IMG/VR virus record: IMGVR_UViG_3300025584_000013
DNA from: a virus
Reading direction: 5' to 3' (one strand)
Length of the DNA stretch: 30,276 nucleotides
The notes beneath the pieces are model-generated. The model did not search any database. It worked only from the letters and a program-made list of their open reading frames with translations, and was not told where the DNA came from. The position numbers and the translations under genes are program-made. Below are positions 3,634-27,113 of the stretch, one piece after another (within the stretch, counting starts at the first letter, position 1; every line of letters begins with the position of its first letter).

Positions 3634-3909
3634 ATGAAGTATAAACACGGACAAGTAATTAAAGTAAATGGTGAAGTTCCACTTATGAATCCAGAAGATT
3701 GGTTCAATGATATGATTGAAGGTGGAATACCCTTAGAACAGGCATTAGACCATGTTATAACTGATTGTATTGTGATGTCAAAGGTAAATGATATGTTGGG
3801 TGAACAAGATGAATTATTCGGAAATAATCAAGGTTTAATTGGAGATTCAACCACATGGAAACAAGGTGGTGGAATGTTTGAAGTCCGAATAGAAGATGAA
3901 AACGTTTAA
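3634..3909 (+). CDS. Hypothetical early protein
   Basis: Promoter plus AAAGGAAAAAAACA-ATG RBS cassette. Confidence 0.8.
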   Translation: MKYKHGQVIKVNGEVPLMNPEDWFNDMIEGGIPLEQALDHVITDCIVMSKVNDMLGEQDELFGNNQGLIGDSTTWKQGGGMFEVRIEDENV

Positions 3910-6380: not shown

Positions 6381-6575
6381 ATGAAGTTCGACATGCGACA
6401 AGTAAGAGATTTAAAAACAAAAGAAATTCCAATAAAAGATTGTGAAATGGGAGGGTGGTCTGATGTATATGCACGATCGGGTAATTATGAAGAACCAGAT
6501 GGGTCTATAAGAAAGCTAACTTCGAAAGAAATCTCAAAAATCAATAGAGAAGATTTATTATCAACTCTCTTTTAA
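6381..6575 (+). CDS. Hypothetical early protein
   Basis: Promoter/RBS cassette nearly identical to the one before ORF 3634. Confidence 0.8.
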   Translation: MKFDMRQVRDLKTKEIPIKDCEMGGWSDVYARSGNYEEPDGSIRKLTSKEISKINREDLLSTLF

Positions 6576-6599
6576 TCATAAAATAAATTAAAATAACAC

Positions 6600-6628
6600 T
6601 TGACTTTACCATTTATTGGTGGTAACTT
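6600..6628 (+). promoter_or_regulatory. sigma70-like promoter
   Basis: TTGACT-N17-TAACTT. Confidence 0.75.
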
Positions 6629-6653
6629 CATGTGTAAGGAAAAAGGAAAAAGA

Positions 6654-6839
6654 ATGAAACTGACAAAATTAGAATCGATTAGAGATGATTTGAATCGAGC
6701 ACTATATGAACTAGATAAATCAGATAAGAAATATATGGATGTGGATGAAATTGTACTCCATATAGAATTAGCTAAAAGAGATTTAGAATCATTAACAAAT
6801 AAAGGAAAAAACAATGAAACTGACAAAATTAGAAACTAA
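6654..6839 (+). CDS. Hypothetical coiled-coil protein (MKLTKLES...)
   Basis: AAGGA SD before ATG 6654; the track's TTG start at 6600 lies inside the promoter. Confidence 0.75.
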   Translation: MKLTKLESIRDDLNRALYELDKSDKKYMDVDEIVLHIELAKRDLESLTNKGKNNETDKIRN

Positions 6840-7098
6840 GTTCGTTGAACAAATTATGGAAAGTGAGTATGCAGATTGGGTAGATACTCCAGAACCAGGT
6901 TACATAGGTGATTGGGTCGTTGGACCAGATTACGATATGAAAGTTGTAAGGGCTCTAATCACTTCATTAGATAAAAAGAAAGTGATTGATATTGGAGAAC
7001 ACATGAATTCATTTGAAGGTAAAGACATGGTTTGGATATCTATTAAACCCGAACTTTTAGATTTTGAGAATTATACATTAATAACAGAAAGGAATTAA
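6814..7098 (+). CDS. Hypothetical protein (MKLTKLET...)
   Basis: RBS and first 7 codons shared with the upstream gene. Confidence 0.75.
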   Translation: MKLTKLETKFVEQIMESEYADWVDTPEPGYIGDWVVGPDYDMKVVRALITSLDKKKVIDIGEHMNSFEGKDMVWISIKPELLDFENYTLITERN

Positions 7099-7102
7099 CA
7101 TA

Positions 7103-7414
7103 ATGAAATCAACAATGTCAATGGATATGGATACTTTAATTGAAGAACTAAATCGTTCAGCAAAAGAAGCATATAAAGGTAGAATGTTACCTCCAGGATA
7201 TTCAGTTAATACTAATGGTAGAAAGTATTTTAAGATAATCCAAGACGGTGGTGGTGTAGTATGTTTCGTAGAAAAAGAAACAGGGAACATATACAAACCC
7301 GCTGGTTGGAAGGCTCCATACACTAAAGGGGTAAACGCAGTAAGAGCAAACATTCATGAGTATAGTACATTCATGAATAGAACTGACCCATACGGTAGTT
7401 GGTTATATATTTAA
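7103..7414 (+). CDS. Conserved phage hypothetical protein (GRKYxKI...TGxIYKPAxWKAP type)
   Basis: Motif recognised from aquatic phage proteins; GAAAGGAAT SD. Confidence 0.8.
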   Translation: MKSTMSMDMDTLIEELNRSAKEAYKGRMLPPGYSVNTNGRKYFKIIQDGGGVVCFVEKETGNIYKPAGWKAPYTKGVNAVRANIHEYSTFMNRTDPYGSWLYI

Positions 7415-7427
7415 TAGGAAATAACAC

Positions 7428-7456
7428 TTGACTTTATCATAAATCCTTCGTAAATT
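7428..7456 (+). promoter_or_regulatory. sigma70-like promoter
   Basis: TTGACT-N17-TAAATT; directly precedes the structured element at 7492. Confidence 0.8.
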
Positions 7457-7491
7457 AGATGGGACTATATATAAAAAAAAATAAAGATTTC

Positions 7492-7556
7492 GGGGTGGCA
7501 CCGTAATTACGTAATTGAGACGGTTGGGGTTTATTCCTTTCTCCCCCTGCCACCCC
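7492..7556 (+). ncRNA. Candidate small structured RNA with an anti-SD loop
   Basis: P1 GGGGTGGCA/TGCCACCCC encloses CCGT-AATTACGTAATT-GAG-ACGG and GGGG-TTTATTCCTTTCT-CCCC hairpins. Confidence 0.55.
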
Positions 7557-7737
7557 ACATTTACTAAAGGAATGGGTATAGGTTGGACGAGGTGGACGTT
7601 TCATAACACACCTTAACTATGGATACTACCCAGAAAAAAATAGACAGGTTGAGGGGTTACTAACTGACAACGAAGGTTTCCGTAACCCCAAAACTAATCG
7701 TGGTAAGCTAAATAATATTTTACTAAAAGGATATTAA

Positions 7738-7917
7738 ATGAAAACATATAAAGTAACAATGACGAAAATAGAAAAACAAACATTAAAAGATGCTATTGAT
7801 TATATAAAGTACTGTACTAATCAGATAGATAACGCTTCAGATGAAAAACTTGATACACTTGTACGTGATGTGAAAATCAACGGTGGTAAGCTAAATAATA
7901 TTTTATTAAGTAAGTGA
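7738..7917 (+). CDS. Hypothetical protein, 59 aa (not in track)
   Basis: AAAGGA SD; MKTYKVTMTK...GKLNNILLSK*. Confidence 0.7.
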   Translation: MKTYKVTMTKIEKQTLKDAIDYIKYCTNQIDNASDEKLDTLVRDVKINGGKLNNILLSK

Positions 7918-7935
7918 GTTAGGGTGATAGAATAA

Positions 7936-8154
7936 ATGAATACAGACAAAATAACAGAAGCAATAACAATATCATTAATGGGTATAGGATTAGTATTAAT
8001 GATAGGATTACTATATGCATATCCAGTAATGTGGCTATGGAACTGGTTAATTACAGATATATTTACACTACGTAGTATATCAGTAACAGAAGCATTAGGG
8101 CTTGTAGTATTGAGTGGCCTACTATTGAAAAGCTCAAGTTCTTCAAGTAAGTAA
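7936..8154 (+). CDS. Small membrane protein
   Basis: Two to three hydrophobic segments. Confidence 0.7.
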   Translation: MNTDKITEAITISLMGIGLVLMIGLLYAYPVMWLWNWLITDIFTLRSISVTEALGLVVLSGLLLKSSSSSSK

Positions 8155-8172
8155 GTTACACAGATAAAATAA

Positions 8173-8343
8173 ATGAATACAGACAATTTGACAGACTTCC
8201 CTGTTACAGAAAATAGAGCTACAAAAACTCTCAAATTTCTCGTCGAGAGGGGGGGGGTAGTTTGTCGTGAATGGCGGAACTATGACATAATGACAGACTC
8301 GTCAAGGTGGTTTTCATATCGAGGTCAATTTTTGGTTGTATAG
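8173..8343 (+). CDS. Hypothetical protein, 56 aa (not in track; spans a G9 tract)
   Basis: Shares 18 nt around the start codon with ORF 7936. Confidence 0.45.
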   Translation: MNTDNLTDFPVTENRATKTLKFLVERGGVVCREWRNYDIMTDSSRWFSYRGQFLVV

Positions 8344-8580
8344 AAACATGACACTATTACTCTATCTCTAACGAGATAAATAATAATATACGAGTGTAGG
8401 GGAAAGGAAATAGGTATAATGATTATATGAACTCTTATGAACGACATAAAACTCCCTATATTCGGTTGAATATTATGTGCGAAGTTTTTGTTGTTTTTGA
8501 GAATTTAGGTATATAGTTATTATCCAAGATGAATGTTGACCATCAACATTCTAAGTTATAAACCAAATAAGGAGCTCATC

Positions 8581-8658
8581 ATGAGTAAACCAAAAGAAGC
8601 ATCATTTCTTACCTACGAAGAGGCAGCTAAAGTTATCGGAATCGATCCAAAGTCAATA
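8581..8658 (+). pseudogene. N-terminal half of an excisionase/MerR-like HTH protein
   Basis: AAGGAG SD; MSKPKEASFLTYEEAAKVIGIDPKSI, with sequence unrelated to the HTH thereafter. Confidence 0.75.
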
Positions 8659-17354: not shown

Positions 17355-18092
17355 ATGAAATGTGAATATTGTAATAAAGAACATAATGGGAGTTTTGCAA
17401 CTGGTAGATTTTGTAATAGGAGTTGTTCTAATGGATTTTCTACTAAAGCAAAACGAAAAGAAATAAATGAGAAAGTTAGTAAAACTTTAACACAACATAA
17501 ACAGATTGAAAGAAATTGTTTGGTATGTAATAAAAAGTTCATTACCACTGATTATAACGGTCCAACTCAAACACAACAAAAACTATGTTCAAGAGAATGT
17601 GGAAGCCAGTATTGGCCTGATAGTCGTAGGAAATCACAATCATTGGCTATGGTTAAACGAATATTAAATGGACATGCACCATCATTGAAGTCTATTAGAT
17701 GTGAATATTTATATAAAGATAAATTAATAAAGTGTGATTCTAAAGTAGAATATAGTTGTTTAGATTATTTTGAAAATGAATTTAATGTGATGGATATTGA
17801 TAGATGTAATTTTAGTTTACCATTTGAATTTGAGAATAGAGAACGGAGATATATTCCAGATTTTAAAATAAAAACTACTAATGGTGAAATTTATATTGTA
17901 GAATGTAAAACTATTATTTCCAACAATGACTTGCAGAGAAAATGGAAATATTATTACGATACTATAGATATTAAACGAGAAACTTTAATAAATTACTGTG
18001 ATAAGAATGGATACACACCATTTTTTTATAATAAAGAACTCAATAGAAAATTTTACGATAACTGCAATCCCACCGGTATACCCTCGGTCTGA
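17355..18092 (+). CDS. Putative homing-type endonuclease: Cys-rich N-terminal motifs plus a TnsA/PD-(D/E)XK-like C-terminal domain
   Basis: CEYC...FCNRSC and CLVC...CSREC; catalytic-like YIPDFKI...IVECK. Confidence 0.7.
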   Translation: MKCEYCNKEHNGSFATGRFCNRSCSNGFSTKAKRKEINEKVSKTLTQHKQIERNCLVCNKKFITTDYNGPTQTQQKLCSRECGSQYWPDSRRKSQSLAMVKRILNGHAPSLKSIRCEYLYKDKLIKCDSKVEYSCLDYFENEFNVMDIDRCNFSLPFEFENRERRYIPDFKIKTTNGEIYIVECKTIISNNDLQRKWKYYYDTIDIKRETLINYCDKNGYTPFFYNKELNRKFYDNCNPTGIPSV

Positions 18093-26432: not shown

Positions 26433-26471
26433 AAAATTTCTTTCTAATTAGAAGAAACTAAAAACGAAGTG

Positions 26472-26503
26472 GTGAAGCTATCAAAATATTTTGATAGTTT
26501 CAC
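26472..26503. other. Perfect 20-bp palindrome within a longer hairpin (terminator or operator)
   Basis: CTATCAAAATATTTTGATAG (26478-26497) flanked by GTGAAG/TTTCAC. Confidence 0.7.
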
Positions 26504-26540
26504 TTTCTCGTATAATATTTAATAATAGGAAATAAAAAAT

Positions 26541-26747
26541 ATGAATAATAAATTAAAACGTTCAATGAAACGATTAACAGAAATGGATGCGTATATGGAT
26601 GACAATATAAGAAATGTTTATATTGATAATATCGTATCTAATTTAAAACGTGGTATTTACCCAAAGGGATCCCTTGAAAGAATCCAGAAACTCATAGAGA
26701 GGCATCAAATTATACTAAAGGCAAAGGAAAAATTAGTTAGGGGTTAA
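26541..26747 (+). CDS. Hypothetical protein
   Basis: AGGA SD. Confidence 0.7.
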   Translation: MNNKLKRSMKRLTEMDAYMDDNIRNVYIDNIVSNLKRGIYPKGSLERIQKLIERHQIILKAKEKLVRG

Positions 26748-26757
26748 TCCCACTAAC

Positions 26758-26797
26758 GTGGGGTGGGTATTTTAAATTCCTTTTTATCTCACCCCAC
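26758..26797 (+). other. Hairpin with an anti-SD loop, related to the 7492 element
   Basis: GTGGGGTGGG/CTCACCCCAC; loop contains ATTCCTTT. Confidence 0.65.
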
Positions 26798-26816
26798 ACT
26801 TTAATAGGAAAATATA

Positions 26817-27113
26817 ATGGATGATTTTTTAATTGACATGAAAAAAAGTTACGATTACCATGAGAGTGCTGGTAATCTGTATAAGGTAAAAAAACTAAGC
26901 ACTCAAATTTTTGAATTTATAAAAATTTCTAAAACTGGTTGGTCAAGTGAAAGTAGAAGTGATTTTGCATTTGTAACAAAATTACAAGAACAATTAATGG
27001 CCGAGGCTAAAATTGGTGGTGGGTTTAAATTAACAAAAAATGAAAAATTAATGTGTAATATTATTTATAAGCGATATAACAACAAGGACCAATACAATGA
27101 AACAAATAATTAA
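26817..27113 (+). CDS. Hypothetical protein
   Basis: AGGA SD. Confidence 0.7.
   Translation: MDDFLIDMKKSYDYHESAGNLYKVKKLSTQIFEFIKISKTGWSSESRSDFAFVTKLQEQLMAEAKIGGGFKLTKNEKLMCNIIYKRYNNKDQYNETNN

Follow-up and report, generated by a model that had tools for sequence, protein, structure and literature searches.

Anti-Shine-Dalgarno (anti-SD) loops on stable hairpins are the means by which several bacterial small RNAs silence translation. The c4 RNA of P1 and P7 lies on the same transcript as its target; it has two loops for two target sites, the loops pair with a downstream site covering the ribosome-binding site (RBS), and the RNA is cut out by RNase P. Cuckoo RNAs, the alpha-r14 / CcsR family of alphaproteobacteria, have variable stems and carry the same anti-SD-like motif in each of their loops of 9 to 27 nt (PMC4615179). 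In Staphylococcus, UCCC or C-rich loops on stable hairpins of RNAIII and the Rsa RNAs, including a terminator hairpin, pair with SD sequences (PMC9266662, PMC4615179). For genes e, soc, 49, and I-TevI of phage T4, the RBS is paired with upstream RNA on long read-through transcripts, and transcripts that start from nearer promoters escape (PMC3014915). PeSL cassettes of T4-type phages consist of a repeated early promoter with an SD sequence and an associated stem-loop, and they are found in variable regions, at indel boundaries between related phages (PMC2839356, PMC4122927). Anti-SD loops are mentioned neither in the PeSL papers (PMC2839356, PMC4122927) nor in a review of posttranscriptional control in T4 (PMC3014915).

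The locus described here is a 65-nt element at positions 7492 to 7556 of a phage contig of 30,276 nt (IMG/VR record IMGVR_UViG_3300025584_000013), which was analyzed over its whole length and is called the window below. In architecture, cuckoo RNAs come closest to the hairpin class characterized in this study, both combining variable stems with an anti-SD-like loop. However, cuckoo RNAs are bacterial small RNAs with two to four adjacent hairpins and the loop motif CCUCCUCCC (PMC4615179), whereas the present case is that of one anti-SD hairpin, with the loop UUUA(C/U)UCCUUUC, in phages and mostly between cistrons. The likeness to c4 is that of a small structured RNA on the transcript of its own target, with one loop in the present case. 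The staphylococcal UCCC-loop RNAs, likewise similar in architecture, differ in being trans-acting RNAs of the host with defined ends, a shorter motif, and a different context. In T4 RBS sequestering, the SD sequence is part of a nested helix, whereas here the anti-SD sequence lies in a loop and loop-to-strand pairing is proposed; in the window copy, furthermore, the promoter is upstream of the anti-SD sequence. The PeSL stem-loop is located just upstream of the early promoter, with the SD sequence and start codon coming next (PMC4122927), and its stem is conserved, whereas the hairpin of the present element follows 36 nt downstream of the -10 box. We tentatively propose, with a probability of roughly 45%, that the element belongs to a phage-wide class of hairpins and that, within a rearranged promoter cassette, it masks SD sequences in cis or near-cis.

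Structure of the element and complementarity of its loop

The window is A+T rich (32% G+C), and its plus strand carries nearly all of the genes. Thirteen tRNA genes were detected using ARAGORN, and other genes encode a PhoH-like protein and a CobS/CbbQ-type AAA ATPase. The relatives of the window derive from marine metagenomes; the best cultured match of its AAA ATPase is that of Microcystis phage Mel-JY01 (56% identity), a phage in which the hairpin model found no match. The parts of the element are as follows.

7492 to 7556, plus strand: 65-nt element composed of outer stem (8 bp), side arm, and inner hairpin bearing the anti-SD loop, defined by sequence and fold
7500 to 7524, plus strand: side arm with an ACCGT/ACGGT stem (arms at 7500 to 7504 and 7520 to 7524)
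7526 to 7547, plus strand: inner hairpin, GGGG / 13-nt loop TTTATTCCTTTCT / CCCC(C) (inner stem at 7526 to 7529 and 7543 to 7546)

The outer stem, formed by 7492 to 7499 and 7549 to 7556, contains 7 G-C pairs among its 8 bp. The three-way junction with an exposed loop, as proposed in a preliminary description made from the sequence, was recovered with a minimum free energy of -26 kcal/mol (z = -2.6), and 3 of 200 shuffled sequences were equally stable. This fold was retained when the whole intergenic stretch was folded. The partition function of the whole leader likewise supported exposure of the loop, with a predicted unpaired probability of 0.94 and a pairing probability of about 1 for the outer stem. 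Perfect stems of at least 7 bp with at least 6 G/C occur only twice in the window, namely, the outer stem and a tRNA-like element at 18070. A tRNA or tRNA-like gene at the 65-nt element itself was rejected, as neither ARAGORN nor the Rfam tRNA model detected a cloverleaf. Throughout 7492 to 7556, the stems are perfect, the loop is intact, and signs of decay are absent.

The 13-nt loop TTTATTCCTTTCT (7530 to 7542) contains ATTCCTTTC at 7533 to 7541. As previously noted, the latter is the exact reverse complement of GAAAGGAAT at 7087 to 7095, the RBS of ORF 7103, and we found that the match spans 10 nt rather than 9, with AGAAAGGAAT (7086 to 7095) opposite ATTCCTTTCT (7533 to 7542). The second reported complementarity, 8 nt between ATTCCTTT and AAAGGAAT at 7566 to 7573, was also verified. 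The heptamer TTCCTTT is present in only five copies on the plus strand of the window; two of them are located in the loops of GGGGTGG-type hairpins (7534 and 26777), and the remaining three lie within ORFs by their coordinates. Such loops make up about 33 of the 30,276 bases, giving a chance expectation of about 0.005 for TTCCTTT in them.

The side arm looks like an insertion into a plain hairpin. When it is set aside, GGGGTGGC-TGGGG and CCCCCTGCCACCCC pair as a 13-bp stem, in which one T.T mismatch occurs, and enclose the 13-nt loop. The arm itself holds a perfect 12-nt palindrome, AATTACGTAATT (7505 to 7516). This palindrome recurs in the related contig L009 at 3705 to 3717, where it forms part of a short tandem repeat that follows the DUF7717 gene (BLAST E value of 2.6); the recurrence could represent a protein-binding site or may be due to chance.

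Promoter, leader, and neighboring ribosome-binding sites

The surroundings of the element comprise the following features.

7417 to 7460, plus strand: early promoter cassette, recognized by membership in direct-repeat family D3 and also by a consensus scan
7428 to 7433, plus strand: -35 box TTGACT, with a 17-nt spacer to the -10 box
7451 to 7456, plus strand: -10 box TAAATT, identical to that of the promoter copy at 2689
7086 to 7095, plus strand: RBS of ORF 7103 (DUF7717 protein), a 10-nt perfect complement of the loop with a predicted duplex of -11.8 kcal/mol
7566 to 7573, plus strand: RBS-like AAAGGAAT, 10 nt past the element, complementary to the loop with a predicted duplex of -9.6 kcal/mol
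7653 to 7689, plus strand: second GC-rich leader hairpin, GGGGTTAC/GTAACCCC, with a 21-nt loop and no anti-SD motif; absent from the related contig L010
7725 to 7731, plus strand: SD sequence AAAAGGA preceding ORF 7738
7725 to 7917, plus strand, including the SD sequence: ORF 7738 to 7917 (59 amino acids), the first gene that the 7428 promoter could serve

The stretch from 7417 to 7480 aligns with a promoter family that has 12 or more repeated copies in the window, and the 7428 promoter has the extended -35 sequence CACTTGACTTTATCA and the 17-nt spacer that are common to this family. Other promoter copies of the window are covered by the direct-repeat families D1 to D5. The dedicated promoter postulated for the element is thus, by likeness, a true member of the repeated early-promoter family of the window, and in this sense the element has a putative promoter of its own. 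The transcription start would be expected at about 7462 to 7465.

The element begins 77 nt past the stop codon of ORF 7103, with the promoter in between; the RBS-like site after it has no gene. Nothing credible as an ORF was found between 7415 and 7737, in agreement with the earlier statement that the element contains none. The RBS-like AAAGGAAT at 7566 abuts an ATG without spacing and opens a frame of just 14 codons; it probably represents what is left of the RBS in a promoter-RBS cassette. A tblastn search with the stop-free frame at 7582 to 7734, considered as a decayed leader gene, returned no convincing match in any related locus, and ORF 7738 has no relatives in IMG/VR.

A terminator scan of the plus strand from 6500 to 8600 returned no terminator-like site, and neither of the two GC-rich leader hairpins is followed by a T run on this strand. 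On the minus strand, a T run begins 6 nt past the stem and was not called by the scan. An intrinsic terminator at the element was rejected because the T run is absent from the plus strand. Since no plus-strand terminator or other 3' end signal precedes ORF 7738, the element is placed within a leader of about 275 nt, and the claim of a discrete small RNA could not be upheld. In the transcript from 7428, the hairpin should be situated about 30 nt behind the 5' end, and transcription should proceed into ORF 7738; the element is probably not a free-standing small RNA. Membership in the cuckoo family was rejected as well: there is one anti-SD loop with another motif, the hairpin at 7653 to 7689 lacks such a loop, and no Rfam match was obtained.

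The RBS core AAAGGAA occurs in 17 copies on the plus strand of the window. Its recurrence among early RBSs, which the preliminary description had emphasized, was borne out: among the 17 genes called between 2600 and 8600, 10 have it in their RBS, as opposed to none of the 42 others. This distribution, together with the early-family promoter and a loop displayed by a highly stable stem, as is usual for antisense regulators, speaks for a trans-acting small RNA. Such an RNA would start from 7428, be processed or end near 7560, and bind AAAGGAA RBSs through its loop, either turning early translation down or acting as a decoy. GC-clamped hairpins are, in addition, likely to outlive the rest of the mRNA. 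The lack of a terminator or other 3' end signal argues against this explanation, as does the predicted energy of the duplex with common early RBSs, -6.7 to -7.2 kcal/mol, which is about the same as for the assumed 16S-tail motif. Moreover, 41 of 300 shuffled loops paired equally well on average. A global block of early RBSs in trans, as originally suggested, is not supported by a duplex of about -7 kcal/mol that is no better than the 16S-tail motif. We therefore consider the trans-acting small RNA improbable.

Relatives of the locus and possible signs of cassette shuffling

Searches for the 65-nt element by blastn against 50,697 phage records and with exact 32-nt and 21-nt patterns in IMG/VR gave no match, and blastn and nhmmer searches of 74 related loci recovered nothing beyond the promoter and a 19-nt junction motif. 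The three-way junction as a whole was accordingly not found to be conserved in any of these three collections. DUF7717, for its part, has no relatives in the bacterial genome collection. The absence of the element from L010 and the failure to find an ortholog also weigh against a trans-acting small RNA.

L010 is the closest informative relative, its DUF7717 protein being 67% identical to that of the window. It has no counterpart of window positions 7407 to 7577, which include the promoter, the hairpin, and AAAGGAAT, while the flanks of this segment align between the two contigs (TAGGTT..AGGTGGAC on one side and the 19-nt junction motif GTAAGCTAAATAATATTTT on the other). The segment is thus located at an indel boundary, as PeSL elements are. 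The ends of neighboring ORFs are duplicated (direct repeats D15 and D19). Both the indel and the duplicated gene ends fit cassette shuffling of the kind described for PeSL elements of T4-type phages (PMC2839356; PMC4122927).

The same observations could be read as the trace of a functionless scar. In this reading, illegitimate or cassette recombination would have brought a class hairpin, together with its inserted arm, between the promoter and a leftover RBS, and the complementarity would reflect no more than the mutual likeness of RBSs. The indel relative to L010, the vestigial RBS without a gene, a 52-codon start-less open frame that ends like the next ORF, the duplicated ORF ends (D15 and D19), and the want of an ortholog for the 65-nt form all favor this explanation. 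It does not account for perfect stems and an intact loop showing no decay, nor for matches of 10 nt and 8 nt that exceed the 7 nt common to other early RBSs. It is further at odds with selection on the hairpin class as a whole, described below, and we regard a mere scar as distinctly unlikely.

The junction sequence GGTAAGCTAAATAATATTTTA (window positions 7690 to 7726 and 7873 to 7909) ends both the start-less open frame and ORF 7738 (..GKLNNILL). It recurs after the DUF7717 gene of L010 at 2123 to 2141, where it is identical over 19 nt. It may be a recombination joint or a separate signal.

A class of anti-SD-loop hairpins in related contigs

A covariance model built from the 65-nt element alone was applied to the window and related loci. 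The search for copies, which had been suggested at the outset, returned other G+C-rich hairpins with quite different stems and a nearly identical loop, both in the window and in related loci. We defined the class by a G+C-rich stem of at least 8 bp that varies with compensation by a sense-strand loop of about 12 to 15 nt, TTTA(C/T)TCCTTTC(T), and by an intergenic location closely behind a sense-strand stop codon, often with the next RBS or a T run not far downstream. Conserved stems with a changing loop had been named as a pattern that would refute the preliminary interpretation; the reverse was observed, the loop sequence being kept and the stems varying with compensation across relatives and many other phages.

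In the 65-nt element, an 8-bp outer stem is combined with a 4-bp inner stem, or 13 bp with one mismatch without the side arm, and the class loop occupies 7530 to 7542. This loop, TTTATTCCTTTCT, is identical at 12 of 13 positions to the loops of L045 and L063. The arm-less form resembles the class members L120, L081, and L102, with which it has the 3' strand CCTG(C/A)CCCC in common. The three-way junction is best seen as a class hairpin into which a 25-nt side arm appears to have been inserted.

Two further hairpins of the window are relevant in this context.

26758 to 26797, plus strand: second anti-SD-loop hairpin, 10-bp stem GTGGGGTGGG/CTCACCCCAC, with ATTCCTTT inside a 20-nt loop
3514 to 3559, plus strand: hairpin of the same stem type, TGTGGGGTGGT/ACCACTCCACA, with a different 24-nt loop; the -35 hexamer of the 3579 promoter follows 19 nt downstream

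The hairpin at 26758 to 26797 begins 10 nt past the stop codon of a 68-amino-acid ORF and ends 19 nt before ORF 26817, so that it lies between the stop codon and the RBS of ORF 26817, the position typical of the class. It is placed among the genes that follow the AAA ATPase gene, where hairpins are also found in L034, L045, L063, L102, and L117. Hairpins flank the AAA ATPase gene on both sides in L034, L045, and L063 and follow it in L102 and L117.

To describe the class independently of the loop sequence, we used 61 non-redundant contigs around DUF7717 homologs that were not chosen by loop. Of 46 sense-strand occurrences of TCCTTT, 12 fell within the loop of a GC-rich hairpin, compared with 0 of 197 on the opposite strand. 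In A+T-rich contigs, nearly all GC-rich long-loop hairpins have loops such as TTTAACTCCTTTT, TTTCTACTCCTTTC, or TTTACTCCTTTCT. A T run follows 8 of the 12 hairpins in the DUF7717-neighbor contigs, and class hairpins with T runs probably also terminate transcription.

T runs after these 8 of 12 hairpins, and after about 10 of 45 distinct hairpins from IMG/VR (see below), give part of the class the look of intrinsic terminators. The element might be a structural mRNA signal, that is, a terminator, a stabilizer, a processing site, or a PeSL-type recombination stem-loop, with the loop bound by a protein such as S1 or a phage RNA-binding protein. The L009 hairpin at 2867 to 2903, which directly precedes the early promoter of the DUF7717 gene, and the 3514 hairpin of the window both have the PeSL layout, being placed just upstream of early promoters, and the segment that is an indel relative to L010 is in keeping with this explanation. 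However, the window copy has no plus-strand T run, and a fixed 13-nt loop sequence is not necessary for termination or stabilization. Nor would protein binding call for a loop that is antisense to an RBS and its spacer over 10 to 12 nt, and the PeSL papers report conserved stems, not loops (PMC4122927). On balance, a structural signal of this type appears unlikely to us.

Distribution in phages and covariation

The breadth of the class was evaluated with the pattern GGGG N0-8 TTTAYTCCTTTC N0-8 CCCC. In IMG/VR, this pattern matched 75 stretches, 45 of them distinct, whereas two control loops of the same composition in scrambled order matched 1 and 0 stretches. The matching contigs range from 30% to 66% G+C, and the stems reach beyond the imposed GGGG/CCCC, mostly forming 8 to 15 perfect bp. 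Where the coding strand was clear, the anti-SD reading was on the sense strand in about 22 cases versus 5. The sites are intergenic and often lie 7 to 28 nt past a sense stop codon; in roughly a third, the next start codon is 19 to 34 nt downstream. Of the 45 distinct hairpins, about 10 precede a T run. Flanking genes are diverse and include those for SSB and UvsX, AAA ATPase, methyltransferase and small terminase, primase, and tail chaperone. In a bacterial genome collection estimated to be several times larger, the same pattern matched 63 stretches, mostly with stems of 4 to 6 bp; these short-stem matches look like chance occurrences, and the few with long stems look like prophages or phage contigs. 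Copies of the class are sparse, with one or two per 35 to 50 kb where checked.

Covariation was assessed on an alignment of 58 hits (33 distinct) that had been fitted to the model. In this model-fitted alignment of 33 distinct sequences, 97.3% of cells were paired, compared with 68.6% in shuffles; the search pattern itself required the outer GGGG/CCCC (up to four pairs) of the IMG/VR sequences. Both sides had changed in 10 of 10 pairs, and the signal of the fitted alignment collapsed when the partner strand was slid. To judge from its sequences, the class as a whole is under selection, and the 65-nt element, by its loop and stem, is one copy of this phage-wide class. Conservation of the loop across phages would also suit a trans-acting small RNA, but the copies in other phages are found inside operons between genes and not behind promoters of their own.

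None of the Rfam models covers these hairpins. At gathering thresholds, Rfam models detected only tRNAs in the window. At E values up to 10, the region from 7300 to 7850 yielded chance-level hits only, including RsaOG on the minus strand (E value of 3.1), and c4 was rejected since its Rfam model (C4) had no match in this search. Rfam searches over the hairpins of twelve related loci returned nothing, and the loop sequence was encountered in the literature only in unrelated primers. The anti-SD-loop hairpin class is apparently undescribed in Rfam and in the literature searched.

Proposed role in masking of Shine-Dalgarno sequences

Since the loop is antisense to an RBS and its spacer, pairing with SD sequences is the obvious hypothesis. 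In the proposed mechanism, a variable G+C-rich stem would clamp open a loop of about 13 nt, UUUA(C/U)UCCUUUC(U), which copies a sequence of the ribosome's anti-SD type, i.e., the antisense of the standard phage RBS and spacer. The exposed loop could then pair with SD sequences on the same RNA. One candidate target is the RBS-like AAAGGAAU 10 nt downstream, with which a pseudoknot would form; another is the RBS of the DUF7717 gene 7103, which would be reached over a long range on read-through transcripts. Such pairing would lower or time ribosome loading at neighboring cistrons, and the stable stem may protect or mark a processing end.

The loop matches of 10 nt and 8 nt at the two nearest RBS-like sites are longer than the 7 nt at other early RBSs, and the predicted duplexes at these two sites (-11.8 and -9.6 kcal/mol) are much more stable than those at common early RBSs (-6.7 to -7.2 kcal/mol). 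Because pairing is stronger at the nearby sites, a cis or near-cis role is favored. In its logic, this role would resemble RBS sequestering in T4 (PMC3014915); it would also resemble the action of the c4 RNA. A cis switch or pseudoknot with the nearby AAAGGAAT, the alternative offered in the preliminary description, would fit better than a global block in trans, and the most likely effect of the element would be to damp the translation of nearby genes. The sequence, the fold with its exposed loop, the likeness to the promoter family, the conserved loop on covarying stems, and the enrichment in phages are direct results of the analysis; we infer transcription, SD pairing, and the effect on translation from sequence.

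Several points argue against masking in cis. The site at 7566 has no usable start codon, so the target of masking is not obvious. The RBS of ORF 7103 is 440 nt upstream, behind the promoter, and it shares an RNA with the element only in read-through transcripts from upstream promoters. The 65-nt form has no known ortholog and could be a non-functional by-product of cassette shuffling. In addition, in several contigs the loop variant (UUCC or CUCC) is not matched to the SD sequence of the next gene, an observation that favors a structural signal, and the conserved loop could bind a protein instead. At the contig level, the association of loop type with RBS type (UUCC with GGAA, CUCC with GGAG) derived from the window alone, with p = 0.5 when the window was omitted.

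A broader version of SD masking would be that of a portable module carried by many unrelated phages, in which a GC-clamped anti-SD hairpin competes with ribosomes for SD sites and sets the output of neighboring cistrons, and in which nuclease-resistant fragments, accumulating in the course of infection, could also turn down whole classes of RBS such as AAAGGAA; we rate this extended form as rather unlikely. If true, phages would possess a level of translational control that is general and has not been described so far. The repetition of the same design in phage operons suggests a compact, movable RNA part that tunes protein output per gene. Masking of this type, if it holds, would improve the annotation of phage intergenic regions, where the hairpins are otherwise probably read as terminators, and would offer a natural part for setting expression ratios. 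Should the loop bind a protein instead, the class would still mark an unknown recognition signal.

Arrangement of class hairpins in related contigs

Upstream of the AAA ATPase gene, a conserved composite region is found in L034 (2870 to 3000), L043 (1540 to 1650), L045 (2470 to 2600), L041 (1900 to 2030), and L024 (1600 to 1738). Its parts follow in the order of an AAATAGGTTATAT-like motif, a variable hairpin, an anti-SD-loop terminator, a doubled TGTTACA motif, and a promoter. Between L034 and L043, the flanks are nearly identical and the stem differs by compensating changes. In L048 (1205 to 1530), too, an ORF-less stretch follows the DUF7717 gene; it measures about 290 nt and contains several small hairpins, one of them with a TTCG loop. 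An anti-SD-loop terminator comes after this ORF-less stretch, and its stem, GGGGTG...CACCCC, resembles that of the window.

In the window itself, a smaller hairpin at 26737 to 26757 directly precedes the second anti-SD-loop hairpin, and the stretch from 26433 to 26830 folds unusually well (z of -3.6). An anti-SD-loop hairpin is located directly before a tRNA gene in L032 (3104 to 3264) and in L205 (385 to 450), one of which is a 689-nt contig that was binned as Marinobacter and is phage-like in appearance.
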